From contig JACQYB010000038.1 in NCBI GenBank assembly GCA_016208415.1, positions 22,730-86,729 on the forward strand: a stretch of 64,000 nt of DNA. The letters are read 5' to 3'. The position numbers and the translations under genes were made by a program. The DNA comes from Betaproteobacteria bacterium. GTDB lineage: Bacteria; Pseudomonadota; Gammaproteobacteria; Burkholderiales; Rhodocyclaceae. The stretch's first letter is position 1. Each line of letters begins with the position of its first letter. This document shows positions 2,510-63,979 of the stretch, piece by piece. The notes below the pieces were generated by a model. The model was given only the letters and a program-made list of their open reading frames with translations, did no database searches and was not told the DNA's origin.

Positions 2510-2845
2510 ATGCTGATTACCTTCCGCTCCCGGGCCGCCGGCGACGTGATCATGTTCGGTGACGTCGGGCGCCGCATGCTGGAGATCATGGGCAAGGACC
2601 CGGCCGACCGACAGGGCATCGTGACCGTCGAGCAGCTCCCCGCGGCCATCGCGCGGCTGCGCGCGGCGATGGAGGAGGACCGGGCCGCCCACACGGCGCT
2701 GGTTCAGGCCGAAGACGACGAGGAGGGGGGGCGGAGCATGATGGCGCCGGTGTCGCTGATCCAGCGCGCCGTGCCGCTGGTGGAACTGCTGGAGTATGCC
2801 CGCCGCGACGGCGAGCCGATGATCTGGGAAGCCACCGGCAGGTAG
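2510..2845 (+). CDS. DUF1840 domain-containing protein
   Basis: C-terminal part of ORF 1484..2845, starting MLITFRSRAAGDVIMFGDVGRRMLEIMGKD. This is the characteristic DUF1840 N-terminus. The rest of the long ORF is antisense to the kinase gene. Confidence 0.7.
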   Translation: MLITFRSRAAGDVIMFGDVGRRMLEIMGKDPADRQGIVTVEQLPAAIARLRAAMEEDRAAHTALVQAEDDEEGGRSMMAPVSLIQRAVPLVELLEYARRDGEPMIWEATGR

Positions 2846-2916
2846 CCGCTGGCGCCGGCCGGCGGGCCCGGCTTTTTCCCCATGGATGGAAGCGCCCCCC
2901 CGCGGAAGGCCATTCC

Positions 2917-2966
2917 GTGGGAGCGGGCTTGCCCGCGATCGCGTCGGCTGCAATCGCGGGCAAGCC
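2917..2966. repeat. REP-like GC-rich palindromic element
   Basis: The core is GTGGGAGCGGGCTTGCCCGCGAT. GGCTTGCCCGCGAT (2926..2939) and ATCGCGGGCAAGCC (2953..2966) form a perfect 14-bp inverted repeat with a 13-nt loop. The element lies between the convergent DUF1840 and ccmI genes. A related half-copy is at 44645..44668. Confidence 0.55.
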
Positions 2967-2996
2967 TGCTTGCGCGCGCCACGCGCGGCCTCCCAA

Positions 2997-4259
2997 TCAG
3001 CGCGCCGGTGCCTGCGCCACGGTGTCGATGACGATGCGTACACCCTTGGCCTGGCGGGCCACGGGCGCGCTGAAGCCCTGCAGGTCGCCGGCACGCGCCG
3101 TAGCGTCGCCGCTGCGCGAGATGCGCGCGCCGATCACCAGCGACCCGTCGCCGGCGGCGGTGCCACCCCCCATGGCGGACGATGGGTCGAGGGTGAATTC
3201 CAGCGGCAGGTCACCGGCCTTGTGCCGCTGCGCCGCCACCGGCCCCCCCTGCGGTCCGCCGCTGCGGGCGAAGATGAACAGCGTATCGTCGGGGCGCAGG
3301 CGGGCGCGCAAAGCCTCGGCCACCTCCACTCGTCCCTTCACGGAAAGCGGCGCCGCGGCGGCGCTGGCCGCTGCGCCCTGCCCCGCGGCGGCAGCGGCTG
3401 TGCCGGTGGGCGGCGCAAAGCCGCCCTGGCGCGCGGCGTCGGCGATGAGGCTGCGGATGCGCCCGGCCGCCTCGTCGTCCTCCTCCGCCTGCGGCAGCAG
3501 CTTCTGCCACATCGTCGCCGCGGCGCGGAAGTCGCGTCGGGTGTAGGCCGAACTAGCCGCCAGCGAGAGCGCCTTGGGGTGCTCCGGATCGAGGGCCAGC
3601 GCGCGGTCGACGAGCTGCTGTGGCTCGCCGGAGAAATCTCCCTCGCGCATTGCCGCGAGCACATCGGCCAGGTCCGCCATGATCTCGGGTTCGTCGGGCA
3701 GCAGCTTGAGGAGCTGGCGGTAGGCCTCCGCGGCCTGTGGGAGGCGGTCCAGGGCGATGTAGGAACGCGCCAGCATGTACCAGGCCTGCGGGTCTGCGGG
3801 CCGCTCCTTCAGCCGTGCCGCCAGGCGCTCCACCGACTGCTCCATGGAATGGGCCTGGTCCCCGGGCGCGCCGGCGACCTCGATGCCCTGGGGAGTGCCC
3901 AGCCAGAGGTACAGTCCCGCGGCCAGGGCCGGCAGGAGCAGACCCACCGCCAGGGCGGCGCGGCGCGGCGGTGTGGCGGTGGCTGCCGTGGGCGGGGCGA
4001 CGGCGGGGGACGCCCCGGTCTCGGCCAGGGCGCGGCGTTCCAGTTCGAGGCGTGCCTCGGCGGCGCGGTCTGCGTCCAGTGCCCCATCGGCCACCTCCTG
4101 GTCCAGGTCCGCCAGTTGGCCGCGCAGCACGGCGAGGTTGGAGTCGGGCGCGGTGTCGGGCGCCGGCGTGCCGGCCGGGCGGGAGAGCAGGGGCGGCAGG
4201 ACGAAGCCGAGGGCCACGGCCAGCAGGAGCAGCGCGCCGGCGACGAAGATCAGGGTCAC
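2997..4259 (-). CDS. ccmI: cytochrome c-type biogenesis protein CcmI (TPR protein)
   Basis: ORF 2997..4613. The likely start is a GTG at 4259 (VTLIFVAGALLLLAVALGF), overlapping the ccmH stop (GTGA). It has an N-terminal TM segment and TPR-like repeats (AWYMLARSYIALDRLPQAAEAYRQLLKLLPD). It is the last gene of the ccm operon. Confidence 0.85.
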   Translation of the reverse strand: MTLIFVAGALLLLAVALGFVLPPLLSRPAGTPAPDTAPDSNLAVLRGQLADLDQEVADGALDADRAAEARLELERRALAETGASPAVAPPTAATATPPRRAALAVGLLLPALAAGLYLWLGTPQGIEVAGAPGDQAHSMEQSVERLAARLKERPADPQAWYMLARSYIALDRLPQAAEAYRQLLKLLPDEPEIMADLADVLAAMREGDFSGEPQQLVDRALALDPEHPKALSLAASSAYTRRDFRAAATMWQKLLPQAEEDDEAAGRIRSLIADAARQGGFAPPTGTAAAAAGQGAAASAAAAPLSVKGRVEVAEALRARLRPDDTLFIFARSGGPQGGPVAAQRHKAGDLPLEFTLDPSSAMGGGTAAGDGSLVIGARISRSGDATARAGDLQGFSAPVARQAKGVRIVIDTVAQAPAR

Positions 4260-7982: not shown

Positions 7983-8157
7983 GTTCCGTCTCCGTGAGGC
8001 TCGCCCGCAGGTCGATCAGTCTCCGAATGGCATGGTGGCGCCGCGCCAGGGTGACGACCTCCGCCGCCATCACCAGCAGCGTGACGCCGTAGCTGCCCCA
8101 CACGTAGGGGCCGTAGCCGCCCATGGCGACAAAGGCTTCGAGGCTGGACCACTGCAT
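7966..8157 (-). CDS. ccmD: heme exporter protein CcmD
   Basis: 63-aa single-TM protein ([23 protein letters not shown]) located between ccmC and ccmE. It overlaps the ccmE start. Confidence 0.85.
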
Positions 8158-8184
8158 GGAGGGGGCTCGCTTTCAATAGGCCGC

Positions 8185-8928
8185 TCATGCGGCGCGCAGG
8201 CGCGCCACCCACTCGGAGTGGCGCTCGCGTTCGAGGATGATGGAGCGCACCCGCACCAGGGTCGCCGCGATGGCGTAGCCCCAGAAGGACAGCGCCATGA
8301 CCAGCATGCCCCACAACATGATGCGGGCCATCTTGGGCGCCGCGGTCATGCTCACCGAGGCGCCCTGGTGCAGGGTGTTCCACCACTGCACCGAAAAATA
8401 GATGATGGGGACGTTCACCACCCCCACCAGGGCGATGACCGCCGCCGCCTTGTCGGCGCGGCGCGGGTCGTCGATGGCGCCATGCAGGGCCATGAAACCC
8501 AGGTAGAGGAAGAGCAGCAGGAGTTCGGAGGTGAGCCGCGCATCCCACACCCACCAGGCGCCCCAGGTGGGCTTGCCCCACAGCGCGCCGGTCCACAGGG
8601 CGACGAAGGTGAACATCGCCCCCGTGGGTGCCAGGGCGCTGGCCATCATGGACGACAGCCGGGTGTTGAGCACCAGTCCCAGCCCGGCCCAGGCGGCCAT
8701 GATGATGTAGATGAACATCGACATCCACGCCGCCGGCACGTGGATGAAGATGATGCGGTAGGCATCGCCCTGCTGGGCGTCGGTGGGGGCGACGAGGAAG
8801 CCGATGTAGAGCCCCGCCATGCCCAGCACCATTGCCGCCGCGGCGAACCACGGCCATAGCGCCCCCGCCAGCGGGTAGAACGCCTGGGGGGAGGCGAAAC
8901 GGTAAAGCAGCTTTCCCTGACCGCTCAT
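8185..8928 (-). CDS. ccmC: heme ABC exporter permease CcmC
   Basis: ORF 8185..9141 with likely start MSGQGKLLYRFASPQAFY (ATG 8928). It has the WGKPTWGAWWVWDARLTSELLL tryptophan-rich motif and IIFIHVPAAW. Confidence 0.95.
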   Translation of the reverse strand: MSGQGKLLYRFASPQAFYPLAGALWPWFAAAAMVLGMAGLYIGFLVAPTDAQQGDAYRIIFIHVPAAWMSMFIYIIMAAWAGLGLVLNTRLSSMMASALAPTGAMFTFVALWTGALWGKPTWGAWWVWDARLTSELLLLFLYLGFMALHGAIDDPRRADKAAAVIALVGVVNVPIIYFSVQWWNTLHQGASVSMTAAPKMARIMLWGMLVMALSFWGYAIAATLVRVRSIILERERHSEWVARLRAA

Positions 8929-46043: not shown

Positions 46044-49000
46044 TCAAGCCGCCGCCCATTCGGCGGAAAGCAGCGCGGCCTGCTCCAGCACCGTCTGCGT
46101 CGCCTTCTCCTGCTTGTCCGGCGGATAGCCGTACTTGCGCAGAATGCGCTTCACCAGCACGCGCAGTTGCGCGCGCACGTTCTCGCGCAGCGTCCAGTCG
46201 ATCGTGACGTTGGCGCGCACGGTCCGCACCAGTTCCTGCGCAATGGTGCGCAGGGTCTCGTCGCCGAGCACCTTCACCGCGCTGTCGTTCGTCTCCAAGG
46301 CGTCGTAGAAGGCCAGCTCGTCCTCGGAGAGGCGCAGCGCTTCACCGCGCGCGTGGGCCTCGCGCATCTCCTTCGCGAGCGCGATCAGCTCCTCGATCAC
46401 CTGCGCCGCTTCGATGGCGCGGTTCTGATACCGGCGGATCGTCTGCTCGAGCATCTCGGCGAACGAGCGCGCCTGCACGACGTTCTTGCGCCGCCGCGTG
46501 GCCAATTCGCCCTTCAGCAGCTTCTGCAGTAGCTCGACCGCGAGGTTGCGCTGGGGCATCCCCCGCACCTCGGCCAGGAACTCCTCCGAGAGAATCGAGA
46601 TGTCGGGCTTGGCGAGGCCCGCCGCCGAAAAAATGTCGATCACGCCCTCGGGCGCCACCGCGCGCGAGATGATCTGCCGCACCGCGTGCTCGATGTCCTC
46701 CTCGGGCCGCGCGTCGCCGGGGGCACGCTTGGCAAGCACGGCCTGCACCGCCTGGAAGAACGCCATGTCGTCGCGGATACGCAGCGCCTCGGCGTGCGGC
46801 ACCGCCAGCGCGAAAGCCTGCGATAGCTCGCGCACCGCTCCCACGCACCGCTCCTTGCCGCTCTCCTGCGCCAGGATGTGCTCCTGCGCGGCCGGCAGCA
46901 GGCCGAGGCGCTCCTGCGGCGTGCCGGTCGTCCACCTCGACCGGTCGAAGCCGTGGAAGAGGCTGGCGCACACCTCGTACTTCTCCAGCATCAGGGCGAC
47001 CGCCTCCTCCTGATCCAGCGCCGTGCGCCCGGTGCCGCCGCTCTCCGTGTACGTGGCCAGCGCCTGTTTCAACTCCTGGGCGAGACCCAGGTAGTCCACC
47101 ACCAGCCCGCCGGGCTTGTCCCCGAACACACGATTGACGCGGGCGATGGCCTGCATCAGGCCATGCCCGCGCATGGGCTTGTCGATGTACATCGTGGAAA
47201 GGCTCGGCGCGTCGAAGCCGGTGAGCCACATGTCGCGCACGAGCACGATCCGCAGCGCATCGGAGGGCTTCCGGAAGCGGTTGGCCAGCGCCTCGCGCCG
47301 CGGCTTGTTGCGGATGTGCGCCTGCCAGTCGGCCGGATCGGACGCCGAGCCGGTCATCACCGCCTTGATGGCGCCCTGGTTGTCGTCCTCGCTCGCCCAA
47401 TCCGGCCGCAGCCGGACGATCTCGTGGTACAGCTCCACGCAGATGCGACGGCTCATGCAGACGATCATCGCCTTGCCATCCATGGCCTCACGGCGCTGCT
47501 CGAAGTGCTCGACGATGTCGCGGGCGACGAGTTCCAGGCGCATCGAAGCGCCCACCACGGCTTCGAGCTGCGCCCACTTGGTCTTCAGCTTCTCCTTGCG
47601 CTCGACCTCCTCGCCCTCGGTGGCCTCCTCGAACCCGGGGTCGATCTTCGGCCGCTCGGCCTCGTCGAGCGCCAGCTTGGCCAGCCGGCTCTCGAAGTAG
47701 ATCGGCACCGTGGCGCCGTCCTGCACCGCGCGCTGGATGTCGTAGACGCTGATGTAGTCGCCGAACACCGCGCGCGTGTTGGCGTCGGCGAGCTCGATCG
47801 GCGTGCCGGTGAAGCCGATGAACGAGGCGTGCGGCAGCGCGTCGCGCATGTGGCGCGCGTAGCCGTCGATGAAGTCGTACTGGCTGCGGTGCGCCTCGTC
47901 GGTGATCACCACGATGTTGCGGCGCCCCGAGAGCGACGGGAGCCGGTCGCCCTTTTCCTCCGGGAAGAACTTGTGAATGGTGGTGAACACCACGCCGCCC
48001 GCCGCCACGCCGAGCAGTTCGCGCAGGTGCGCGCGCGATTCGGCCTGCACCGGCGGCTGGCGCAGCAGGTCCCGGCAGCGCGAGAAGGTGCCGAAGAGCT
48101 GGTCGTCGAGGTCGTTGCGGTCGGTGAGGACGACGATGGTCGGGTTCGCCATCGCCGGCTCGCGGATGATGCGGCCGGCGTAGAAGGCCATGGTCAGGCT
48201 CTTGCCCGAGCCCTGGGTGTGCCAGACCACGCCCACGCGCCGGTCACCGGGAGCGCCCCCGGGCTTGCCGCCGGCCTCGTAGCGACCTTGCTTGCCATGG
48301 GTGCCCAGCGGACCGTACTGAAGCCGCGCGGCCCGCAGCGTCTCGCCCACCGCCACCTGCACGGCGTGGAACTGGTGATAGCCGGCCATCTTCTTGACGA
48401 TGCGGCCGCCGTCGTCCTCGAACACGATGAAATCGCGCACCAGATCAAGGAAGCGCTGCCGTGCCAAGAGGCCTTTGATCACCACCTGTAGCTCAGGCAT
48501 GTGGGCGTCGGCCAGGGTGTCGCCCGCGATGGTGCGCCAAGGCTTGAACCACTCCCGCCCGGCGGTGAGCGTGCCGACGCGCCCCTCCACCCCGTCGGAG
48601 ATGGCGAGCAGGGCGTTGGTGGCGAACAGCGACGCGATCTCCGCCTTGTAGGTCTGCAACTGCTGCCAGGCGCTCCAGATGGTCGCGCTCTCGTCCGCCG
48701 CGTTCTTGAGCTCGACGACCGCCAGCGGCAGGCCGTTTACGAAGAGCACCACGTCCGGACGGCGCGCGTGCTTGTTCTCCGTGACGCTGAACTGGTTCAC
48801 CGCCAGCCAGTCGTTGCCCGCCGGGTCGTCGAAGTCGATCACCCGCGCCTGCGCGCCGCGGATCGTGCCGTCGGCGGTGCGGTACTCCACCGTCACCCCG
48901 TCGACCAGCAGCCGATGAAGCGCCCGGTTGCGCGCAACCGACTCGGCGCCTTCGGGCCGTGTGAGCTTGCGGAAGGCCTCCTCCAGCGCGTCGGCGGGCA

Positions 49001-49184
49001 GTACCGGATTGAGCTGCGCCAGTGCATCGCGCAGCCGCCGCGCCAGGACGACCTGGCCGTAGTCGTCACGCTCCGCGGCAGACTCACCAGGGGCGATCTC
49101 GGTGCCGTTCCTCACCAACCAGCCGGCGCTTTCGAGCCAGGCCAGCGCAGCCTGCTCGACGACGGATTCGTCGAACGCGGCCAT
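46044..49184 (-). CDS. hsdR: Type I restriction endonuclease subunit R
   Basis: 1046 aa with an N-terminal nuclease region (VELKNAADE), SF2 motor motifs ([40 protein letters not shown]) and a C-terminal helical domain. Confidence 0.95.
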
Positions 49185-49188
49185 ACGG

Positions 49189-50307
49189 CTAGGCGGCTTC
49201 GATCAGTTGATCGCTGATATGCACCCGCATCCAGCCGAGCAGCACGAGATTACGGATTGCACTTGCCACCGCGTGCCGCTTCTCCTCGGTCTGCCAGGCC
49301 TTCTTCCATCCCAGGATGTAGTCGTAGATGTCCTTCTCGGCCACCGTGTCGGCGCCCCTCGCCTGCTTGAGCTGACGACTCGCGTACAGCACGGTCAGGA
49401 CCTCTTCCGCCTGCTCGGTCGACTTGATGCGGCTGAACAGATCGACGGCCTTGGCGATCTTCTTCTGGTGGGCCTCGATCCGCGCTGCGAACTTGCCGCG
49501 GTCCTGTTCGTACTGGGGGCCGACCCTCAGCGCGACCATGCGCCCGAGGGATTTCTCCTGCAGCCAGTTCCGGTTCGCCAGTTCGTGCAGGGCCGCCTTC
49601 ACATCGGGAGAGAACGGCCCATAACTGCCCTTGCCGAACGAGAATCCAGTCGGCACGCCCATTTCCGTAACGACATAGCAGAGCTTCTGGAAAATCGTGC
49701 GGCCCACCGGATTCGCATATGGCTGCGCTTGCAGTTCGCGCAGCACTTCCAGCAGCGCGACCCAGTCCGGATTCAGCTTGTCGGTTGGGCGACCACGCCC
49801 AGACAGCGAGAGTTGCGCGGGCGCGGCCAGAAACGCCTCCGTGAGTTGCTGACCCGGTGTGCCGTAGGGCGCGAAAACCTCCACGTCCACCGGCAAGCGG
49901 TGCAGCTTGCGATAGACCAGGGGGCCGACCTCTGACCACTCCAGCCCACCGTTGCCGCAGCCCAAAGGCGGCAGGACCAGGCTCCTGATGCCCCATTCCC
50001 CGATGTGCGCCGCCAGGTAATCCAGCCCACGCTCGACATCCACGATCCGGGATGGCGAACGCCAGTGGTCCTTCGTCGGGAAGTTGACGATCGAAACGCC
50101 CGACGTGTCGCGGTACAGGTACGGCTCGCCCAGGCGCACTTGCCTGCACTCGCACCGCCGCTGGTAGTCCTCGAACATCGCCGGCCAGCGCTTCTTGAAC
50201 TCCAGCGCGACGCCCTTGCCCATCACCCCGACGCAATTGACGGTGTTGACGAGCGTTTGCGCCCGGGTCGCGAAGAGATCGCCAATCAGTGCCTTGAACA
50301 TGGTCAT
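49189..50307 (-). CDS. darG: DarG-like antitoxin (N-terminal macrodomain plus C-terminal DarT-associated domain)
   Basis: 372 aa with macrodomain motifs [25 protein letters not shown] and [12 protein letters not shown]. It lies 12 nt downstream of the DarT-like gene. Confidence 0.85.
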
Positions 50308-50319
50308 AGTTTGAACCTG

Positions 50320-50907
50320 TCAGCGAAAGAACAAAACGGGATCGACAGCGACCGGCAACGTGCAGCCGAGGTCCCCGAGGCGCGCCGCAGCCCCCGCATC
50401 GACGACAAATGCGCCCACGATGAAACCGGGTGCCACTTGGTGCGGAATCAAGACTTCCGCGCACTTGCGCGACTTGTGACGCCAGTAGGCGATCGGGTCA
50501 CCGGGGTGGCGCCAGTCCATGGCGAAGATGTCGTCCCAGTCGAGCAGCCGCCACTGCGCGGGCGCCAGGAAGCGCACGTAGTCGCTGGCCGCGTTCTGGT
50601 CGGTGATCACAGCCCCGGGCAGTGCCAGCACCTGGGTCGAAACCCGCAGCACGCACAGGCCATCCGCTTCGGATAGCCGCCTGTGCAGCATCGGGTTGCG
50701 CGCATGGAAGTAGAGGTTCGCGTACTGGTGCAGCTTCAAACCGCCGGGAACGTGCTTGTGATCGCGCCGGTCCTGCACGGGCTGCATCGCGACGGAATGG
50801 TGCGACAACTTGGCCGCGCGCTCGTAAGAAAGAATCCCGTGCGCAATCACCGATGCAATGTTGGCCATCGGCATGATGCAGTGGAGTTCGATGACGCGAG
50901 GGTCCAT
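50320..50907 (-). CDS. darT: DarT-like ssDNA ADP-ribosyltransferase toxin (DUF4433)
   Basis: ORF 50320..50988 with likely start MDPRVIELHCIMPMANIASVIAHGILS. The family-typical N-terminus and the AEVLIPHQV catalytic Glu context are present. Confidence 0.85.
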   Translation of the reverse strand: MDPRVIELHCIMPMANIASVIAHGILSYERAAKLSHHSVAMQPVQDRRDHKHVPGGLKLHQYANLYFHARNPMLHRRLSEADGLCVLRVSTQVLALPGAVITDQNAASDYVRFLAPAQWRLLDWDDIFAMDWRHPGDPIAYWRHKSRKCAEVLIPHQVAPGFIVGAFVVDAGAAARLGDLGCTLPVAVDPVLFFR

Positions 50908-50962
50908 TGCTAGACGGCCTCCGCAATCACTCTCTCGGCGCCCTTCACCCGCAAGTGGCCGG

Positions 50963-51158
50963 AGATCGTGCGCCAGGCCCTGAACCACTCGCGCCCGGCG
51001 GTGAGCGCGCCGACGCGCACCTCCACGCCGTCGGAGACGGCGAGTAGCGCGTTCGGCGCGAACAGCGTCGGCACCTTCGCCTTGTAGGTCTGGAACTGCT
51101 GGAAGGCGCTCCAGATCGTGGCGTTCTCGTCGGCGGCGTTCTTCAACTCCTCCGGCAG
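50963..51158 (-). pseudogene. internal fragment of a second hsdR allele (relic)
   Basis: ORF 50910..51374 contains [62 protein letters not shown]. This aligns with residues ~158-219 of the intact HsdR (48525..48713; roughly 70% of aligned residues identical on my hand count). No other HsdR segments are present. Confidence 0.75.
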
Positions 51159-51208
51159 ATTGAATCGATCACGCAGGCTCTGATTCCACATTTGCGCGAG
51201 ACCCCGAA

Positions 51209-51844
51209 TCATGCCCTCACCATTTCCAGCAGAACCTCTCGCAACGCGCAGAAGCTCGGCGAGGTGTTTCGCGACGGCGCCATGTGCGCTGCAACGGTGC
51301 GTGCGGCTTCTACCTTGCGCAGTCCGCCGCTGTAGTAGCCCGCCCTCTGAAGCACGCGCTCGAACGCCTCCCACGTGCCCCCCGCGATTTCATCCGGGGC
51401 GCGGTACTTCGCCTGCGAAGGAATGGTCGCGGACACTCCCGGATAAGCTGCCTGCACGGCCTCCCAGTCGCCGAAATAGCACGCCTCCAGTTCTTCGATC
51501 GCGAGACGATTCACCACCATGTAGGTACTACCCTTTGCGCTGGCACGTGTTGCCAAGCCGGCTTCACTGGCCATCTTCTCCAGGCGCCGTTTGAGTCCCG
51601 CGCAATCGTCGTCGTCCCGATCGATCACGACGACGATACGGCAATGGTCGCGAAACCATGCATCGCTCTTGCGCCGCTGGCCGTAGCCACGCAGTCGATG
51701 TGGAAGGCGGAGCAGCAGTTCGTCCTTGCACTGGTGCGGGTATATCTCGAAGGACAGATCGCCGAGTACCTTGGGCAGGAGGAGACGAAGCGCGGCCTCC
51801 ATTGAGGGCTCTTCAACGAGCAACTCGACATGTTCCACCGTCAC
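51209..51844 (-). CDS. DUF4276 family protein (TOPRIM-like E...DxD arrangement)
   Basis: Part of ORF 51209..52108. The GTG at 51844 overlaps the ATPase stop (GTGA). Sequence: [28 protein letters not shown] ... [21 protein letters not shown] ... The family assignment is from memory of DUF4276 sequence features, not a search. Confidence 0.7.
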
Positions 51845-53066
51845 TTCGGCTTCCCCTGTTTCGCCGGGGCTCCCGAGCGCACCAGGGGATCTCCCACGCC
51901 GAACCGTCCTTCCATCCACAGGTGACCAAGGGATGCGCCCGCTTCCATGAACTCGGGAACGCCCGGAATGTCGGCGGCGCGAATGGCTTGGGTGTAGCCC
52001 TGTTCGTCCCGATAGAGCACACGCACCTCTTCCGCAGGCAACGCATTTACGAAAAAGGGTGAGTGGGTCGTGACCAGTAATTGCGAGCGTTCCGACGCGG
52101 CGCGGCACTCTTCCGCCAGTTCGGGCAGAAGGCGCGGATGCAGAAAGTTTTCGGGCTCCTCGATGCCGACAAACGGCGGCGGGGCGGGGTCGTGCAACAG
52201 CACAAGATAGGCCAGCATCTTGAGTGTGCCGTCCGAGGCAAACCTCGCCAGCACGGGGTTATCGAAAGGCGCGTCCTTGATCTGCAACAGCAGGCGTCCA
52301 TCCGGCATGGCTTCGGCCAGCACGCGCTCGACCCTGGGAACCCGTGCGCGCAGCACATTGAAAATGCGTTCCAGCCGGTCGGGATGCTGTTCAGCCAAAT
52401 ACTGGATGACGTTCGCCACGTTGTTCCCGGTACGGGACAGTCGCTCCTGCGGCCCGGTTTCCGGCTGGCCTCGCGTTTCATCGACGGAAAAATAGGAAAC
52501 GTACCAGCCGGTGATGAAGTCGCGCAGCGCGGCCACGCGGGGATGGTCGGCAAACTGGCCCAAGGCATTGACGGCGATGAGGTCCGGCGCTTTCAGCGGA
52601 ATCTCAATCCGTTTGTCCTGCTCGTCCGGCAGTTCCCCGCTGGCGGCTTTTCCTTGACCCTCGTGATAATCCAGAAAACGAAAAGGCTGCCCGTGACTAC
52701 CCCGCTTCCAGCGCAACCATTCTTCGACCACAACCGGCGAACCTTTACGCTCATCAACCGCCAGGTGATAGGTAATGAGCGGATAGCCCGGCTCGCGATA
52801 CTTGATTTCAATGACTAGTGGACCATCGCCTCCCCGGGTCTTCAATTCCTTCCCTCGTCCGCGGCGATCCCAGGCGCGGCGCAGCCCCGATTCGAAGCAC
52901 TCCGAGAGGAAAGCGAAGACGTCGAAGACCGTGGATTTGCCGCTGCCGTTGGCGCCCAACAGGGCCGTCATCGGCGTGAGATTCTTGAACTCCACGTGTT
53001 TGAGCGCGCGGTAATTCTCGACCCGCAGATACTCTATCCGAGCCTTGTGCCCCTGGTTATCCTTGG

Positions 53067-53070
<4 letters not shown>
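51841..53070 (-). CDS. ABC/SMC-like AAA family ATPase (AAA_21/AAA_15 type)
   Basis: 409 aa with Walker [10 protein letters not shown], signature-like [11 protein letters not shown], Walker [15 protein letters not shown] and H-loop TTHSP. The ATG overlaps the hsdS stop (ATGA). Confidence 0.85.
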
Positions 53071-54408
<1,338 letters not shown>

Positions 54409-54419
<11 letters not shown>

Positions 54420-54480
54420 ACCCAAGCTCCTTGAGGTTCGCGGCAATTGCGGCATCCAGCTTCGCAGCCTCCACTTGACT
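54409..54480 (-). pseudogene. relic of an hsdM 3' end fused to the hsdS start region
   Basis: The out-of-frame reading [23 protein letters not shown] matches the C-terminus of the intact HsdM ([19 protein letters not shown]). It ends in the classic ATGGCGGGTGA hsdM/hsdS overlap. Confidence 0.65.
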
Positions 54481-55625
54481 CACGATTTCCTCCTGCGAGC
54501 CGCCGGCGTCGGCCTCAAATCACCCGACAGCTCCGCCTCGATCTCTTCCACCGTCGGCAGACTCCCCTTGAGCGCCTTCGGGAGCTTCTCGACGAGCTTC
54601 GTCTCCCAGCCGGCGACGCCGATCGGGCGCTTCAGGTGGCGCAGCGCGTATTCGACGACGACCTTGTTCTTCGCGCGGCACAAGAGCAGCCCGATGGTGG
54701 GCTGGTCATCGGGGTGTCGCAGCAGGTCGTCGGCGGCGGAGAGGTAGAGGTTCAACTGACCGACGAAGGCCGGGTCGAAGGGCACGGCCTTGAGCTCGAC
54801 GACGACGTAGCAGCGCAGCTTCAGGTGGTAGAAGAGGAGGTCGATCTGGAAGTCCTGGTCGCCGACTTCAAGCGGCACCTGCCGGCCGACGAAGGCGAAG
54901 CCGCTGCCCAGCTCCAACAGGAAGCGCTGGATGTGATCGACGAGGGCTTGCTCGACTTCGCGCTCGCGGCGCGGGTCGGCGGTGCCGAGGAAGTCGAAGA
55001 GGTACGGATCCTTGAAGACTTGGGCGGTCAGGTCCGACTCGGCGTGCGGCAGGGTGTCACAAAAGTTGGTGATCGCCTTGCCCTGGCGCTCGTGGGCGCG
55101 ACCCTGGATCTGGAGCACCAGGATGTTGTGCGACCAGCCGTGCTCCATCGCCTGCCGGGCGTACCAGAGCCGTTCGGTGGGGTCGTCGAGCTTCTCCAGG
55201 AGGGCGATGTGGTGGTACCAGGGAATTCGTGCAAGCGCCTCTTGCACGATTGCCCGCTCCGGCCACGCTGCGGCAAGCGCACGCATGTACTTGAGATTGC
55301 GCGGCGAGAAGCCCTTCATGTCGGGGAACGCCGCGCGCAGGTCCGCGGCCAGCCGGTCGATCACCTTCGCGCCCCAGCCCGCGCGTTCCTGCCGGTCGAG
55401 GATCATCCGGCCGATGTCCCAGTAGAGCAGGACCATCGCCGCGTTGGCGGTGAGGACGACCCGCAAGCGTTCTTCGTGGATGCGCTGCTTGATGGCGCCG
55501 AGGGTATCCGCGTAGTCCTGCGGCAGACCACCCTTCGCTGGCGCGGCCGGAAACCGGGCCTCCTCCCGCTGTCGGCCCAAGGCAAGCCGGTTCTCCGCTT
55601 CGGCACGCTGGCGCTTACGAGCCAT
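54480..55625 (-). CDS. DUF1016/YhcG-like PD-(D/E)XK nuclease family protein
   Basis: ORF 54480..55631; ATG at 55625 (MARKRQ) preceded by AAGGAG. It has the family N-terminal helical domain (LLYWDIGRMI, FSPRNLKYMRAL) and a nuclease core (IDLLFYHLKLRCYVVVELK). Confidence 0.85.
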   Translation of the reverse strand: MARKRQRAEAENRLALGRQREEARFPAAPAKGGLPQDYADTLGAIKQRIHEERLRVVLTANAAMVLLYWDIGRMILDRQERAGWGAKVIDRLAADLRAAFPDMKGFSPRNLKYMRALAAAWPERAIVQEALARIPWYHHIALLEKLDDPTERLWYARQAMEHGWSHNILVLQIQGRAHERQGKAITNFCDTLPHAESDLTAQVFKDPYLFDFLGTADPRREREVEQALVDHIQRFLLELGSGFAFVGRQVPLEVGDQDFQIDLLFYHLKLRCYVVVELKAVPFDPAFVGQLNLYLSAADDLLRHPDDQPTIGLLLCRAKNKVVVEYALRHLKRPIGVAGWETKLVEKLPKALKGSLPTVEEIEAELSGDLRPTPAARRRKS

Positions 55626-55690
55626 ACCCAAGCTCCTTCAGTCTGGCGGCGATGGCGGAATTCAGCTTCGACGCCTCGGCCTCCAAATGC
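55615..55690 (-). pseudogene. second relic of an hsdM 3' end
   Basis: The end of ORF 55615..55869 reads LEAEASKLNSAIAARLKELGYGS*. It shares the nucleotide string AAGGAGCTTGGGTATGGC with the hsdS start region and overlaps the DUF1016 start in the same way. Confidence 0.65.
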
Positions 55691-55751
55691 ACGCGCGGCG
55701 CAAATGAATGCACGCGTGCAATTGCCGTGCATTTCCGTGCATTGCTGGCGC

Positions 55752-57408
55752 TCACCGGGGCGTCCTCCGGTAGCTGACGCTCCGTCCTCGCTCGCCCTCG
55801 CGCTCGACAAGCCCTTGTTGCGCCAGGCGATCGAGCAGCCGGTAGGCCTGTGGGCCAGTGATCCGGCACAGCTCCGCCACCTCGCGCCTGGTGATCCGCC
55901 CGTGCTTTTCCACGTATTGCAGCACCATCTGCTCCTGCTGCAGCGGCTCGAAGCCGCGGCTCCGCACGTAGCCGGCCTTGTCCCCGAGCAGCCGGTAGGT
56001 CGCGGCGGAGAGGTGCCAGGTGCGGCCCTTCTTCTGGCCGCGCTCTTCGACGAGCCCGGCTTCGACGAGGCGGTGCAGCGCGGCGCGCGTTTGGCTTTCA
56101 GGCTTCTGCACGAGGCGGGCGGCATCGTCGGTGGTGAGACTGCGCGCCTGCCACAGCGTGTTGAGGATGAGAAGTTCATTGAGCGCGAGATCACGCCCGT
56201 GCTGGGCTTCGGTCACCAGCAGGCGCACGAAGTCGAGGTTGGCCGCGCCGCCGGGGATGACGACGCTGACCGTGGCTTCGTTGCTGCGCGCATAGGAGGG
56301 TGCGGGGCGGCCGTTGCGCAGTTGATCGTAGAAGATGGTGTCGATGCCGCGCGCGGTGCGCTCGACGATGCCGGCACGCTTGAAGGCGTCGGCCAGCAAG
56401 GGGTTCCTCGGGCGCGGCGCGGTGATGAGCAGGTTGTCGAGCCGCACGCCTTCGGGAAAGCCGCCGGGGCTGGTGATCTCGATATGGTCGATCTGCCACT
56501 GGAAGTGCACGGCGCCCAGACGCTGGTAGTCGCGGTGGATCAGGGCATTGGCCACGGCTTCGCGCAGCGCCCGTTCCGGGTAGTCGGGTACGCCGACGCG
56601 CAGGAGGCCCACCATGAGTTCCTGCTCGCGGTTGCGGGCACGGATGCGGGCCTCGATTTCCTCCATGACACGCAGCAGGGGCCAGCGGAAGAAGTCGTTG
56701 ACCTCCACGTCGAGTCCGCGCAGGGCCTGGAAGGCGGTTTCGTGGCCTGGCAGGAAGCGGCGCAGGGCACGCCGCGCACGATGCCGTTGGCTTCCACCAC
56801 GCCCAGCGCCTTGGCCAGTTCCAGATCGGGCAGGTCGAGCAGGGATTCGTCGCTGCGGCCCCGGCGCTCGCGGATGCTGCGGCGGAAGCGCTCGAATTCC
56901 AGGGGGTCCAGGTCTTCCCAGCGAACGGCGGCGACGATCTGGGCCGAGGGGTCAAGCTGCCCCCGATCCGCTTGCAGCGACTGCATCGCGTAACTATCCA
57001 TGGGCAGGCATGCCGGCCGGCCGTCGCCGCCCAGCGCCCGGCGCAGGAAGACGCCATCGCTGGTACCCATCGGATGCTGCTGAGGCGGTGCTTCGATAAC
57101 CAGCACGGCCTTGCCGTCGAGCGGGACTTCCTCGACCTGCACTGCCAAGGCCGGGCGGGTGCGCGCCGCGATCAGCGCGGCCAGCTTGTGGATGTCGGTG
57201 GTTTCTCCGTGGCGGGGGCGGGCACCGGTGACGCGGCCATTGTCCTCGACGCCGATCAGCAGCCAAGCCGGTTCGCCGCCGATGCGGTTGGTCAGGCAAA
57301 CCACGGCTTCGACCAGATCGCGGTCATTGAGAGGCGAGCGTTCCTCGCCCTTGAATTCGACGTTCAAGGTTTCGCCAGCAGCGATCAGATTGCGCAGGGT
57401 TTCGCGGG

Positions 57409-57412
<4 letters not shown>
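55752..57412 (-). pseudogene. COG2865-type putative DNA-binding ATPase/transcriptional regulator (AlbA_2 + HATPase-like + wHTH), frameshifted
   Basis: The N-terminal part is in the frame of ORF 56540..58411: a GTG at 57412 overlaps the hsdM stop, then [23 protein letters not shown]...[10 protein letters not shown]. The continuation is in the frame of ORF 55752..56708: [27 protein letters not shown]...[15 protein letters not shown]...wHTH. A single 1-nt frame change near 56770 joins them. Confidence 0.75.
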
Positions 57413-59043
<1,631 letters not shown>

Positions 59044-59208
59044 TGTCAACCTCACGAGATGATGGCGCACCGGAGTGTCACTGGATCGTCTCACGAAATT
59101 GGCATTGCGGCATGGCCGCGCACCACGGGCGCGCGAGAGAGTGAGCGCGTGCGTTGTGTCGTCAGGAACAGCCGCCGGACTGCGCGTTTACGTAGCCTCC
59201 CGGGCCCC

Positions 59209-60423
59209 CTACCGCCCCTTCATCCCCTCCAGCCTCCCCAGATCCACCCTCTCCAGCGCCTGCTTCACCACCGCCATATCCACCCCGCGCCCCTCCGCCT
59301 CCACCACGAAGCGCTCGGCCACGATGGTGGCGTAGCTCGCCTCCCGCGCCGACTTGCGGTACGACTCGCGGAAGAAGCGGCCGCCGGCCTTGCCGGTCTT
59401 CTCGTAGCCGTCGGCGCTTTCCTTGTCGGACTCGATCATGCCGAAGCCCGCCACGGCCAGCAGCGCCTGGGCGCCGCCCGAATCGGTGATGGAGATCTGC
59501 ACGCCGCGGCCCTGGTCGTCGGCGTAGTGCGCCTCGGCGCGGGCGATGTGGGCGCCGCCCATGCCCACCTTCTGGCTTTCGATCTCGGTGCGCGCCAGGC
59601 CGTCCAGGGCCTCGGGCAGCACGGCCCGCAGTTGCTGGTGATCCACCGGCTCGCGGCCGCCGCTGGCGCCGGCCAGCGCGCCCATGGCTTCGGTGGCCGC
59701 CTTCATCTGCGCCTGGGGATCGCCGCTCTTCTGCGCTTCTTCCATCTTGCGGCCGGCGGCTTCCATCTTCTCGCCGAATTCCTTCATCTTCGCGAGCTGG
59801 TCGTCGCCGCCGCCGGAGGACACGGCGGGCGCCGTCGCCGCCACGCCGCCCGCCATGCCGCCGATGCCCGAGGCCACCATGCCGAGGACCAGCGACACCA
59901 CGAAGGCGCACACCACCACCACCGCCGTGTAGGGCAGCGCCTTCTCCTTGGGCCCCTGCATCAGCGCCTGCAGGCCGAGATGCAGCAGGTACAGCCCGTA
60001 GAGGCTGGCCAGCAGGATCAGCGGCGAAAGCATGGGCAGGATCTGCAGCGCACCGGCCAGCCAGCCCGGGGTGTAGGAATAGGCGGCCACCTTGAGCGCC
60101 TGGGCCATGTCCTGCCGGGCGCCGAAGCGCGGCGCCAGGGCGTTGATGATGAAGGCCACGGCATAAACTGCCACCAGCCCCATGGCGAAGGTGGCGAGCG
60201 CCATCGCCAGCCCCCCGGGGATGGGCATGCGCTGCGTGCCCAGCATGGGCACCGAAATGCCCACCAGGCTGAAGCCGATGAAGCCCGCCACGGCGCCGAT
60301 GGCCGCCAGCGGAATGATGTAGCCGCGGTACAGCTCCGCGGCGGGGGTCTGCTCCCCGCGGATCACTTCCCACTCGGATCTGGGTTGCAGCAGGATCTTC
60401 TTGACGCGTTCGACGAGGTTCAT
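59209..60423 (-). CDS. Yip1 domain membrane protein with C-terminal soluble domain
   Basis: Part of ORF 59209..60726, starting MNLVERVKKILLQPRSEWEVI (typical Yip1/DUF1282 N-terminus). It has 5 TM helices, then a ~190-aa soluble domain of unknown function. Confidence 0.7.
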   Translation of the reverse strand: MNLVERVKKILLQPRSEWEVIRGEQTPAAELYRGYIIPLAAIGAVAGFIGFSLVGISVPMLGTQRMPIPGGLAMALATFAMGLVAVYAVAFIINALAPRFGARQDMAQALKVAAYSYTPGWLAGALQILPMLSPLILLASLYGLYLLHLGLQALMQGPKEKALPYTAVVVVCAFVVSLVLGMVASGIGGMAGGVAATAPAVSSGGGDDQLAKMKEFGEKMEAAGRKMEEAQKSGDPQAQMKAATEAMGALAGASGGREPVDHQQLRAVLPEALDGLARTEIESQKVGMGGAHIARAEAHYADDQGRGVQISITDSGGAQALLAVAGFGMIESDKESADGYEKTGKAGGRFFRESYRKSAREASYATIVAERFVVEAEGRGVDMAVVKQALERVDLGRLEGMKGR

Positions 60424-60578
60424 TGCCCATCCTCCCGGTGACGTTGGTATTGGATCGCACGGTTCCCGACGCGCGGCCAGGCGATCCGCCGAATCACGGC
60501 CAGGTCGCCGCCCTGCCTTGCAGTCGATGGGTGCCAGTGTGCCACCAACGGGGGCGGCTCGGCATCCCCGGGTGGATG

Positions 60579-60770
60579 CTATGGTGCCGCCGCGGCGACG
60601 TCGATGGCGGCACGGCGCTCGTCCGCGTTCTTCGGAGTGGGCGCTGCGCCGCTCACGCCCTCCAGCAGGCTGATCACCTCCTTGTTCACCGAGCGGTGAT
60701 GGGCGTCGGCCTGCTGCTTCAGCCATCGGTGCAGGGATTCCGGGACGTCGCGCAGGGTAAGGGAAGGCAT
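60579..60770 (-). CDS. ribbon-helix-helix antitoxin (FitA/VapB/Arc-like), no cognate toxin adjacent
   Basis: 63 aa, MPSLTLRDVPESLHRWLKQQADAHHRSVNKEVISLLE. This is the typical RHH antitoxin N-terminus. Confidence 0.65.
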   Translation of the reverse strand: MPSLTLRDVPESLHRWLKQQADAHHRSVNKEVISLLEGVSGAAPTPKNADERRAAIDVAAAAP

Positions 60771-60865
60771 CGGGCTTGATTTCAGAGTGACATCACGATG
60801 CCATCAAGAGGCGCTCGCCTGCGGCAATCGGAGCGTCGTCGGGGCGCCGGGGCCAACCACCTGGC

Positions 60866-63800
60866 CTACGACTGCGGCGCCAACACCAGTTCCGGCACCA
60901 CCACCTCCCAGCGCTCGCAGCGCAGGCGGTCGCGGTATTCGGGCTCGGAATCCTCGCGGAGGCGCACGACGATGGCCACGACCCGGGCGGCGATGCAGGC
61001 CATGCCCGGCGGCAGCGTGCAAGCCCGGGCGAGGCGGCCGACGACGCGCCCTTGCTCGTCCACCAGTTCGCGCTGCTCCCCGTCCAGGCGCAGCCGCAGC
61101 GGGGAGCCAGGCACAAGCGCGGCGATGGCGCGATGCACCGGGTGCGCGGCCGCGCGGCGGCCGGCGTAGCCGAGATCCACTTCGGCCAGGGTCAGCCGGC
61201 GGTACTGCCGCGCCAGTTCCGGCGCCGGCGGCGCAAGCTGCACGGGCGCGCGCCGCAGCAGGCCGGCGGCCTCGGGCAGGGCGTCCAGCAGCGCGTGGCG
61301 CCCGTCCAGGCGCGCCAGGGCGAGGGTGGCGCGGGCGCGGGTCATGGCCACGTAGTAGAGGCGGCGCGGGGCGTCGGGGTCTTCGGCGCGGTCGACGCGA
61401 TCCCAGCCGCCGTCCAGCACCGCCACGTGGTCGAACTCCAGCCCCTTGGCGCGGTGGGCGGTGAGCAGCAGCAGGCCGCCCTGGCGGCGGCGCACCTCCC
61501 GGCCCCATTCCGCCAGCCATTCCGTGAAATGGTCGATGGGCAGTTCGGCGCCGCCGGTCTCCAGGGTGTATTCCTGCACCGCCTCGCGCAGCAGTTCGAA
61601 CCAGGGGCCGCCGGCTGGCGCGGCGCCCGGCGCCGGACCCGTCGCCCGGCCTGCATCGTGCGCGCCGTCCGTCGCATGCGCCCCTTCCGCCCCTTCGGCC
61701 AGGTGCGCGCCGCAAGCGCCCGCCGCCCCGTCCAGCCAGCGCTCCAGGGCGGCGGCGTCGATCAGGCGGGGCTCCCGCGCGAGCAGCCAGTCGAGCAGCG
61801 CCCGGGTTTCCCGCAGGCGCCAGAAGTTCGGTGCCTCCTCGTCGGCCATCTGCACCGCGATCCCGAGCAGTTCGCAATGGCTGCGCACGGGCTCCAGGTA
61901 CTTCCATTCGCGGGCGATCACGGCGGTTCGCGCCCAGTCCCAGGCGGGAGCGAGGGCGGCGAGGCGCTGCAGCTCGGCCATCACCGCCACGGCCTGGGTC
62001 AGGGCGTCGGCGCCGGCCGACAGGACCTGGACGCGGCCCTGGCTCACCGCGTCCAGGCCGCTCCATTCGCCGCCGGCGGGCGTGGCGGCCCGCGCCCGGT
62101 CGATGGTGATGGGCTGCCCGGCCTTCATGCGCGCACGGGCCGGTGCGATGACCGCGTTGGCGGCGGCGATGATGTGGGCGCTGCTGCGGTAGTTCTCGGT
62201 GAGCCAGGCCGGTTTCGCCCCGTAGTCGGCCTCGAAGCGGCGGATGAACTCCACCGACGCGCCCTGGAAGGCGTAGATGTTCTGGTCGTCGTCGCCCACG
62301 GCGAACAGGCTCAGGCGCCGCTCCTCGTCGGCCAGCGTGCGACCCGCCAGCGCGGAGATCAGCTCGTACTGCTCCGGGCCGATGTCCTGGTATTCATCGA
62401 CCAGGATCCAGCGGAAGCCGGCCATCAGCCGCTCGCGCTGGGCGCCGCCGTCCGGTTCCCGCTCCTCCGGCGGCAGGTCGTCGCCCTTGAGCCGCGCCAC
62501 CGCTTGTAGCAGCACCGAGCGGAACGCCGCCTCGTCCAGCCTTTCCGCGCGACCGGCAAAGCTCACCCCCGCCAGGCGCATGGCCAGGGCGTGGCAGGTG
62601 AGCACGCTGACGCCGCGCGCATCGTCGCCGATCAGCTCCGCCAGGCGGCGCCGGATCTGCACCGCGGCGTGGCGGTTGTAGGCCAGCGCCAGGATGCCGT
62701 GGGGGTTGTCGCGGCGCACCCGCACCAGGTACGCGATGCGATGCACCAGCACCCGCGTCTTGCCCGAGCCCGGCCCGGCCAGCACCAGGACGTTGGTCTG
62801 CTCGCGCTCGTCGGCGACGATGCGCGCCTGCGCCGGATTGCGCAGCGACTCCACGATCTCCCGCCACGACTGCGGCGTGGTCTGGCGCGCCAGTTCCTTA
62901 TCCCGCCCCGGCAGCCAGCGGCGCAGGAACTCCTCCTGTGCCAGGCAGAAATAGTCCATGGCCAGGCGCAGCGCCTCGGCCATGGCCTGCAGCCCGCGCC
63001 GGGCGTATTCCGCCATGACGTGGATGTGCACCACCTGCTCGTCGTAGTGGAGCTTGAGCGGGGCGAAATCGGCGCGGCCGAAACCGCGCCGCTCCTGGCC
63101 GAGGCGCAGCGTCATGGCGGGGCGGAACACCGCCAGCCCCTTGTTGAGGCGGATCACCTCCTGCTCGTGCAGCCACATCAGGGCGCGGTCCAGCAGGCGC
63201 GGCAGGTCCCGGGCCTCGGCCTTCAGCACCAGGTCGCCCTCCAGCGCCGCCAGCAGCCTGCCCAGGGTGGTCTCGGCGAGCAGGTCGACGCCCCGGGCGC
63301 CGGGCGGCAGACAGGAAAGCCAGTGCTCCAGCAGGCGTGCCGCGGCGGCACGGCGGCGCCGGGCGGTCTCGGCCAGCGCCGACCACTCGCGGCGCAGGCT
63401 CACCTGCACGGTTTCCGCGTCCAGGCGGCGCAGGCCCAGGCTGCCCGCGCCTCCGTCCTCGCTGCGGCCGTCGGCGGCGAGGCTGCGCAGGATGCGCCAC
63501 AGCGTTTCCGGCAGGATGGGGTTGATGCACCCGGCGCCGTCCGACGACGCCCCGAGCGGGTTCGCCGCGGTCTCGGCGCGGTCCTCCGCGGTCTCGGCGC
63601 GGCCCGCCACCACGGGCCGGGCATGGCCCGCGTCCTTCAGCCGCTGGGCGGCGTGGCGCAGGTGCAGCACGCTTGCCTCGCCCCTGGCCAAATCGGGCGC
63701 CGCTTCGCGCAGGTCGTCGATCAGCGCTGCCTCCAGCGCCGCGGCCGCCTCCAGCCGCCTCGCCGACGAGCGTTCCACCCCGGCGTGGACGAAGGCGGTC

Positions 63801-63979
63801 AGCGCCGTGTCGTTGCTGGCGATGCCCAGCCGCTCCAGGTCGTAGAGGGCGGCGCGCACCTTCTCCGCGCTCAGGCCAGCCATGCCCATCAGCTCGTCGG
63901 TGGAAATGCCCTCGTCGGCGTCCGCGCCGATCAGCGCCTCCACCAGCGCCAGCAGGCGGCGGCGGTAGTCCTCGGCCAT
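60866..63979 (-). CDS. UvrD/Rep-family (SF1) helicase with long N-terminal and extra C-terminal regions; may be 5'-incomplete
   Basis: 1037-aa ORF with Walker A LAGPGSGKTRVLVHRIAYL, DEYQDIGPEQ, ENYRSSAHII and YYVAMTRARATL. About 390 aa precede the helicase core. The reading frame stays open upstream of ATG 63979 to the window edge. Confidence 0.85.
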   Translation of the reverse strand: MAEDYRRRLLALVEALIGADADEGISTDELMGMAGLSAEKVRAALYDLERLGIASNDTALTAFVHAGVERSSARRLEAAAALEAALIDDLREAAPDLARGEASVLHLRHAAQRLKDAGHARPVVAGRAETAEDRAETAANPLGASSDGAGCINPILPETLWRILRSLAADGRSEDGGAGSLGLRRLDAETVQVSLRREWSALAETARRRRAAAARLLEHWLSCLPPGARGVDLLAETTLGRLLAALEGDLVLKAEARDLPRLLDRALMWLHEQEVIRLNKGLAVFRPAMTLRLGQERRGFGRADFAPLKLHYDEQVVHIHVMAEYARRGLQAMAEALRLAMDYFCLAQEEFLRRWLPGRDKELARQTTPQSWREIVESLRNPAQARIVADEREQTNVLVLAGPGSGKTRVLVHRIAYLVRVRRDNPHGILALAYNRHAAVQIRRRLAELIGDDARGVSVLTCHALAMRLAGVSFAGRAERLDEAAFRSVLLQAVARLKGDDLPPEEREPDGGAQRERLMAGFRWILVDEYQDIGPEQYELISALAGRTLADEERRLSLFAVGDDDQNIYAFQGASVEFIRRFEADYGAKPAWLTENYRSSAHIIAAANAVIAPARARMKAGQPITIDRARAATPAGGEWSGLDAVSQGRVQVLSAGADALTQAVAVMAELQRLAALAPAWDWARTAVIAREWKYLEPVRSHCELLGIAVQMADEEAPNFWRLRETRALLDWLLAREPRLIDAAALERWLDGAAGACGAHLAEGAEGAHATDGAHDAGRATGPAPGAAPAGGPWFELLREAVQEYTLETGGAELPIDHFTEWLAEWGREVRRRQGGLLLLTAHRAKGLEFDHVAVLDGGWDRVDRAEDPDAPRRLYYVAMTRARATLALARLDGRHALLDALPEAAGLLRRAPVQLAPPAPELARQYRRLTLAEVDLGYAGRRAAAHPVHRAIAALVPGSPLRLRLDGEQRELVDEQGRVVGRLARACTLPPGMACIAARVVAIVVRLREDSEPEYRDRLRCERWEVVVPELVLAPQS

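Follow-up and report, generated by a model that had tools for sequence, protein, structure and literature searches.

How do genes for defence functions come to lie between the core genes of a Type I restriction-modification (R-M) operon, and how are they expressed there? The question is raised by a 64,000-nucleotide (nt) stretch of DNA, hereafter the window, from Betaproteobacteria bacterium of the Rhodocyclaceae (GenBank assembly GCA_016208415.1, contig JACQYB010000038.1, positions 22,730 to 86,729). The minus strand of the window carries one tightly packed Type I R-M operon, in which HsdM, HsdS and HsdR (identified with Pfam and PADLOC) are encoded in the same direction; the order is hsdM, a frameshifted COG2865-type gene, a DUF1016/YhcG gene, hsdS, HEC-01A/B, an hsdR fragment, darT-darG, and hsdR. 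The 3' end of hsdM is found there three times, and copies of it also accompany accessory genes in other genomes. We propose, with a probability of roughly 0.6, that these retained hsdM tails act as translational bridge open reading frames (ORFs) and as probable recombination joints between accessory cassettes. The occurrence of defence genes inside Type I R-M, Hma, BREX and DISARM operons has been termed 'guilt by embedding' (Payne et al., bioRxiv 10.1101/2024.01.29.577857). Such embedding has been used to discover immune systems, and the entry and expression of the embedded genes have been left open.

Copies of the hsdM end in the window

The last approximately 20 codons of hsdM are present three times on the minus strand, namely at the true end of the gene (57409-57480) and in two further segments, copy 1 (55615-55690) and copy 2 (54409-54480). 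Copy 1, whose peptide closes with LEAEASKLNSAIAARLKELGYGS and a stop, ends at 55615 and overlaps the ATG of the DUF1016 gene (55625-55623); copy 2 ends at 54409 and overlaps the ATG of hsdS (54422-54420). The three segments had been pointed out in an initial annotation made from the sequence alone, and all of its coordinates and peptide strings were right when compared with the sequence and translation of the minus strand. A repeat search assigned the three segments to one 64-nt family, with 80% identity between copy 1 and copy 2. When a 57-nt core was aligned by codons, the two copies agreed at 45 of 57 positions, and the HsdM end agreed with copy 1 at 39 and with copy 2 at 40 of the 57; of the positions at which a copy departs from the true end, 13/17 and 11/18 are third codon positions. 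This concentration at third positions means that the tails diverged while coding and that the three tails of the window stem from three different hsdM lineages. The identity of 68-70% and the third-position bias of the differences rule out that the resident hsdM end was recently duplicated in place in the window.

The 18-mer AAGGAGCTTGGGTATGGC, which comprises the Shine-Dalgarno (SD) sequence and the ATG, occurred exactly twice in the window (0 expected from 100 shuffles) and exactly twice in the whole 3.85-Mb genome, where a third site with two mismatches was found on another contig; with two sites only, a genome-wide motif was ruled out. In a genome-wide tblastn search with the last 60 amino acids of HsdM, the two copies ranked first and second among the non-self matches (E values, 5e-5 and 1e-3), and the next match had an E value of 0.69. 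Blastn-short gave no link between the true hsdM end and the copies, the DNA being too diverged, and the relation rests on the protein-level and codon-aligned comparisons. The claim that the DUF1016 gene uses the same SD/ATG context as hsdS was borne out; moreover, in many genomes DUF1016 sits directly on the end of a full-length hsdM, with an identical junction.

Short open reading frames at the cassette boundaries

Both copies lie within short ORFs, which we call bridge ORFs. Bridge ORF 1 (55615-55755, minus strand, 46 codons, from the sequence and its translation) starts with a GTG (55755-55753) that overlaps the TGA of the COG2865-type gene and ends with a TAA (55617-55615) that overlaps the DUF1016 start region. 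It spans a TGCACG-repeat element (55685-55751) and then hsdM-tail copy 1, which contains the SD AAGGAG and the DUF1016 ATG (shared 18-mer, 55621-55638); a GGAGGA was read by eye from the sequence 7 nt upstream of its GTG. This ORF is also open in three other loci (L005, L122 and L123); the indels among the four genomes measure 21 and 54 nt, and 33 nt of the tail have been lost in L005 relative to the window. Bridge ORF 2 (54409-54483, minus strand, 24 codons) corresponds to hsdM-tail copy 2, with the shared 18-mer at 54415-54432. Its GTG (54483-54481), preceded by AGGAGG, overlaps the TGA of DUF1016 (GTGA), and its TGA (54411-54409) overlaps the hsdS start region. The 24-codon ORF recurs in L006, L007, L009 and L084. 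When the bridge behind DUF1016 was compared in six loci, it had 24 codons in five and 25 in L014 (one extra codon), with no frame-breaking indel, and its nucleotide identity (0.65-0.85) was about equal to the third-position identity of the neighbouring DUF1016 gene.

A third such ORF was found on the hsdS-hsdR side of the operon. Bridge ORF 3 (50910-51212, minus strand, 100 codons, assigned from the junction sequence and from repeat and homology matches) starts with an ATG that overlaps the TGA of HEC-01B and ends with a TAG 2 nt before the ATG of darT (50907). It contains a relic of hsdR at 50955-51149, which corresponds to HsdR residues 158-221; its 195 nt are 84% identical to the intact hsdR, and the amino-acid identity to HsdR is 78% (E value, 4e-32). 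All three relic ORFs of the window, including that of the hsdR relic, thus have the bridge architecture, and the bridge-ORF principle extends to the hsdS-hsdR side. GTGA or ATGA overlaps join hsdM to COG2865, COG2865 to bridge ORF 1, DUF1016 to bridge ORF 2, hsdS to HEC-01A, and HEC-01B to bridge ORF 3. The bridge stops overlap the ATGs of DUF1016 and hsdS and the SD lies inside the upstream ORF, which is the stop/start arrangement of a translationally coupled pair.

The architecture was tallied across 20 independent junctions. A tail-frame ATG or GTG overlapping the upstream TGA by 4 nt (NTGA) was present at 13 of these, with GGAGG 5-9 nt upstream in most and with the ATG of the next gene at the end of all. 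RTGA ends 0.36 of the long ORFs in these loci, and only one of the three frames fits; the chance expectation of NTGA is therefore about 0.12-0.18 per junction, and the binomial P value is well below 1e-4, as a rough value that depends on the counting of independent events. Across loci, the bridge mini-ORFs encode 16-82 amino acids, and open frames that end in a tail may exceed 100 amino acids. The maintenance of frame, length, overlaps and SD/ATG while the peptide drifts argues for a ribosome relay and against a functional peptide.

In the arrangement that we propose, the native operon has the SD and start codon of hsdS inside the last codons of hsdM, and both genes are translationally coupled. 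Accessory cassettes (COG2865, DUF1016, HEC-01 and DarTG) have joined one Type I operon, and a cassette joined at the hsdM/hsdS junction leaves a copy of the hsdM 3' end before the next gene. This copy is kept as a short ORF that begins in an NTGA overlap with the end of the cassette gene and terminates over the ATG of the gene that follows. In this way, ribosomes would pass from the cassette to the bridge ORF and on to the next gene via the original hsdM/hsdS initiation region, with conservation of frame, overlaps and SD/ATG only, and not of the peptide. The same conserved sequence of 40-110 nt at each boundary also offers homology for a possible gain, loss and swap of cassettes between Type I loci.

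Tails in other genomes

Eighty loci with close DUF1016 relatives (65-90% identity) were examined; they come from archaea and from a wide variety of bacterial phyla. DUF1016 at this level of identity (L004-L083) was found in Proteobacteria, Acidobacteriota, Planctomycetota, Chloroflexota, Spirochaetota, Elusimicrobiota and methanogenic archaea, a spread that would imply very wide horizontal transfer, mostly along with Type I loci. In many loci the DUF1016 start overlaps the stop of a full-length hsdM, as the hsdS start normally does, and a second copy of the hsdM end sits between the DUF1016 stop and the hsdS start. In an unbiased self-alignment of 28 hsdM-DUF1016 loci, the final 63 nt of hsdM had their closest counterpart elsewhere in the whole locus just past the DUF1016 stop in 12 cases. 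The duplication around DUF1016 was observed in three unrelated tail types (...LKELGYGG, ...NFEELGI and ...ELLALRRMIG); the third hsdM family (L071) was missed by two tail hidden Markov models and was found by self-alignment alone. DUF1016 genes with no hsdM nearby, as well as Fic genes outside R-M loci, still have an upstream tail. Among 401 sampled genomes of the same class, 25 had this tail type, several of them with short-ORF copies.

The initial annotation had suggested a search of other genomes for hsdM-tail relics next to DUF1016 or COG2865 genes; these were found, and other cassette types were found in addition. Extra tails were present around MNT/HepT, DUF6883/DUF4926, DUF4258/MqsA-like, Fic, a 39%-identical DUF1016, and COG2865 genes. 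The locus L084, with the order hsdM-DUF1016-tail-MNT/HepT-tail-hsdS-HEC-01, has three tails and two cassettes, and L018 has two DUF1016 genes and three tails, as in the window. Relatives with hsdM joined directly to hsdS served as a control: none of about 18 had an extra tail, against four of the nine cassette-bearing loci of that sample.

Origin and movement of the tails

The initial annotation had also held that each incoming cassette brings its own copy of the junction by homologous recombination within the hsdM 3' end. One extra tail per cassette was indeed found in the window, L084 and L018, but the tails of one-cassette loci resemble the resident hsdM. In L073, L046, L066, L124 and L071, the downstream tail is most like the tail of the resident hsdM, rare variants included (51 of 54 nt in L073, by our own count), and its left boundary differs from locus to locus. 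The one-cassette tails point to in-situ duplication or gene conversion, not to an imported copy, and would fit repeated local births, either through duplication of the target or through a homologous anchor on one side and an illegitimate join on the other. In multi-cassette loci such as the window, the tails belong to different lineages, which would be expected of imported junction copies.

A module that consists of the COG2865 3' end, the TGCACG element and the tail, with a nucleotide sequence that by eye is highly conserved in four genomes, precedes DUF1016 in the window and in L005, Fic in L122, and hsdS in L123; in L005, Fic takes the place of COG2865 ahead of the TGCACG/tail part. DUF1016 itself is preceded by either a full hsdM or a tail, depending on the genome. 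Since the same module is joined to DUF1016, Fic or hsdS, the switch points of these mosaics lie at the tails, as expected of recombination joints. This part of the earlier claim was thus supported, and cassette movement by recombination within the tails is what we infer from it.

The hsdM upstream of DUF1016 in L018, L034, L040 and L083 has large internal deletions with the 5' and 3' ends kept (for example, HsdM residues 2-72 joined to 329-552), and such genes are possible intermediates toward a tail. In L018, a GC-rich palindrome, CCTGCCTGCCGAAGCTTCGGCGCAGGCAGG, is inserted within a tail copy (about 8150-8190), and the ORF is still open. In L069 (about 8115-8140) and L063 (about 2112-2139), the last 7-8 residues of the local HsdM tail close the DUF1016 ORF in frame (ENFEELGV and ENFKRLKI, respectively, each followed by the stop), and the DUF1016 stop overlaps the hsdS ATG.

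Alternative explanations

The tails might be neutral recombination scars only: cassettes would enter by recombination in the hsdM 3' end, the copies would merely supply SD and ATG, and the features of the mini-ORFs would be incidental. This explanation, which we consider unlikely, agrees with one tail per cassette, with the origin of the window tails from different hsdM lineages, with a drift of the tails at about the synonymous rate, and with the absence of tails from some loci. It does not readily account for NTGA overlaps at 13 of 20 junctions against the expected frequency given above, for indels that stay in frame, or for the match of the downstream tail in one-cassette loci to the resident hsdM rather than to an import. 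We regard as somewhat less likely still an origin from whole extra hsdM genes, in which tandem-fused Type I operons had their redundant hsdM and hsdR trimmed by deletions sparing the downstream initiation region, and in which the tails would move nothing. The wide variation in tail length speaks in its favour, together with the internally deleted hsdM genes that retain both ends (L018, L034, L040 and L083), the internal hsdR relic upstream of darT in the window, and the visibly decayed locus L089. However, one short tail module, with a constant left boundary, precedes three different downstream genes in four genomes, tails go with cassettes outside R-M loci, and no hsdM-DUF1016-full hsdM-hsdS intermediate was found among about 120 loci. 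This model may explain the birth of individual tails, the decay of whole duplicated hsd genes being perhaps one way in which they are born.

It is very improbable that the tail works as a protein, either as a free mimic of the HsdM C-terminal helix that binds the coiled coil of HsdS or as a fusion that docks the cassette protein on HsdS. The conserved HsdM C-terminal region is the interface with HsdS (PMC2647291), and the in-frame ends of the DUF1016 ORFs in L069 and L063 also speak in its favour; nevertheless, replacements accumulate and the tail evolves at about the synonymous rate. In addition, a hairpin interrupts some tails (L018), others are cut to 7-16 residues, and no slippery site for a frameshift fusion was seen in the window when it was read by eye. 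A programmed -1 frameshift fusing DUF1016 to the tail was rejected, as no slippery heptamer was seen at the junction. Selection on the tail at the peptide level was unsupported, with the between-locus identity being about that of DUF1016 third positions. As for chance resemblance of Ala/Leu-rich helices at high G+C, the segments are short and blastn gives no link between the true end and the copies. The initial annotation had itself named such chance similarity, and an 18-mer common throughout the genome, as the ways in which it could fail; the copies are instead the top two tblastn matches genome-wide, the 18-mer is unique to two sites, and copies are found at the same position in dozens of genomes, so that chance is already refuted.

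Several points weigh against the proposal that retained tails are bridge ORFs and recombination joints. The 4-nt overlap is absent from 7 of the 20 junctions, and the tally itself involves judgement. At the nucleotide level the tails diverge almost neutrally, and any selection on them would be limited to the frame and the ends; in GC-rich sequence and in such short ORFs, the absence of stops carries little weight. The COG2865-type gene of the window is frameshifted, and bridge ORF 1 is currently unreachable by coupling from it. DUF1016 is coupled directly to hsdS with no tail in L032, L037 and L055, and therefore a bridge is not required. The tails are also too short and too conserved to place crossover points within them, and the recombination mechanism is therefore plausible but unproven. 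Even so, what the initial annotation had called relics are real copies of the hsdM end and not mere fossils: they are kept as open mini-ORFs with overlapping starts and stops.

Other features of the operon

All genes described here are on the minus strand. The methyltransferase gene hsdM (57409-59094) was identified with Pfam (N6_Mtase and HsdM_N) and PADLOC (MTase_I, 4e-220), and its TGA at the 3' end overlaps the GTG of the next gene (GTGA). This next gene, of the COG2865 type (55752-57412; HATPase_c_4 and two winged helix-turn-helix (wHTH) domains), is the first cassette; it was assigned by Pfam on its 3' part and by three-frame translation, and it has a frameshift near 56770. The second cassette, DUF1016/YhcG (54480-55625), encodes a PD-(D/E)XK nuclease (Pfam DUF1016_N and YhcG_C; PADLOC candidate PDC-S02, 3e-149). 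The specificity gene hsdS (53067-54422; Pfam Methylase_S, PADLOC Specificity_I) starts with the ATG at 54422-54420 (MAGEW...). Between hsdS and hsdR are located HEC-01A (an ABC-type ATPase) and HEC-01B (DUF4276) at 51209-53070, with overlapping stops and starts (ATGA and GTGA), and the toxin-antitoxin cassette darT-darG at 49189-50907 (Pfam DarT and Macro; PADLOC DarG, 2e-91), followed by the intact hsdR at 46044-49184 (Pfam HSDR_N, SWI2_SNF2 and T1RH-like_C). The same-strand non-hsd genes between the hsd core genes thus belong to known or candidate defence families (PDC-S02, HEC-01A/B and DarT/DarG). Directly upstream of hsdM on the same strand (59209-63979) are genes for a Yip1-domain membrane protein and for a 1037-amino-acid UvrD/GajB-like helicase with a long N-terminal extension.

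Longer ORFs can be drawn for two of these genes, from an ATG at 54455 for hsdS and from a TTG at 55631 for DUF1016. The PADLOC Specificity_I profile begins at residue 13 of the ORF from 54455, and homologues and profile alignments put the starts at ATG 54422 (hsdS) and ATG 55625 (DUF1016); the longer versions are longest-ORF artefacts of the open tails. A simple scan from hsdM to hsdS detected no sigma-70 promoter and no intrinsic terminator.

The TGCACG element consists of three direct and two inverted copies of ATGCACG, including the palindrome AATGCACGCGTGCATT. It was also found at 3300-3370 in L005, at about 3015-3085 in L122 and at about 3025-3095 in L123, downstream of COG2865 or Fic. 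Its nucleotide conservation in these three genomes, beside different genes, is high by eye (somewhat less in L005). The element could serve the wHTH protein as an operator; it could also form an RNA hairpin or belong to an internal promoter region. In L122, which is a genome of the same family, the COG2865 homologue (1828-3168) lacks the C-terminal wHTH part; the deletion lies between the similar short sequences ACGGTCAGCG and CCGGTGAGCG and leads in frame into the tail.

Comparison with known systems

Defence-gene embedding and hsdM-hsdS coupling are already known; a literature search turned up no account of bridge ORFs or of hsdM ends that are duplicated. Embedded cases include PrrC in EcoprrI, DarTG2 in the Type I system of EPEC (PMC12255303), and TgvAB in Vibrio cholerae VPI-2 (PMC11411939), and the 'genomic sink' hypothesis has been put forward, with the significance of embedding left open (Payne et al., bioRxiv 10.1101/2024.01.29.577857). 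The window shares with these reports the same-strand accessory genes between the hsd core genes, and HEC-01, PDC-S02 and DarTG are catalogued embedded modules; the reports give no insertion mechanism and mention neither duplicated hsdM ends nor bridge ORFs.

In EcoKI, hsdM and hsdS overlap and are translationally coupled (PMC3510504), on the model of the trpB-trpA stop/start overlap. The stop/start overlap of a few bases, the SD within the upstream coding sequence, and the service of the downstream gene by ribosomes of the upstream ORF would be common to both. Unlike in EcoKI, the coupling unit here is detached from hsdM and reiterated as a mini-ORF of 16-100 codons for each cassette, and coupling is judged from the sequence only.

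The layout also recalls an integron, in that promoterless cassettes lie at one point of an expressed locus with one boundary copy each. The boundary here is, however, a fragment of a coding gene in copies that are 65-95% identical, not an attC hairpin, and any exchange would occur by general recombination. The sole palindrome, in the TGCACG element, is at one boundary only, and a Pfam scan of ORFs from about 40.9-64.0 kb of the window gave no match to an integrase or recombinase domain; an integron origin was ruled out (no integrase, no attC). Target-site duplication by a transposon (2-14 bp) was likewise ruled out, as the repeats are 20-110 nt long and 65-95% identical and there is no transposase.

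Recombination at conserved regions of hsdS was already seen in the early hybrids of the EcoK family. Such recombination gives rise to new specificities and to phase-variable hsdS shufflons (PMC7394358, PMC4948785). The hsdS shufflons have in common with the present loci that short conserved segments of Type I loci serve, or may serve, as joints for reshuffling variable modules. They shuffle target-recognition domains within hsdS, whereas here whole accessory genes between hsdM and hsdS would be exchanged, with the hsdM 3' end as the repeat. Homology-facilitated illegitimate recombination was reportedly described in naturally transformable bacteria by de Vries and Wackernagel in 2002. A one-sided anchor in hsdM with an illegitimate join could yield duplications of variable length, which would fit the diverse left boundaries, and this process is only a candidate for the way in which tails are born.

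Implications

For the gap between hsdM and hsdS, the tails offer a concrete and testable answer to how embedded genes enter and are expressed: they mark the boundaries of the cassettes and would keep hsdS and the cassettes translated, and they could supply homology for cassette gain, loss and swapping. In practical use, tail copies delimit embedded cassettes, flag orphan genes that were once in R-M operons (DUF1016 or Fic with an upstream tail), and correct start-codon calls such as the hsdS ORF from 54455 and the TTG of DUF1016. A broader and more tentative idea, to which we give less credence than to the bridge ORFs themselves, is that the hsdM 3' end is a universal plug-in adaptor, at once a recombination joint and a self-contained linker for coupled expression, and that Type I loci are integrase-free cassette arrays. 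If true, it would explain both the embedding of diverse defence genes and their expression with no promoter of their own. The occurrence of the same layout in many unrelated microbes hints at how defence genes become embedded.

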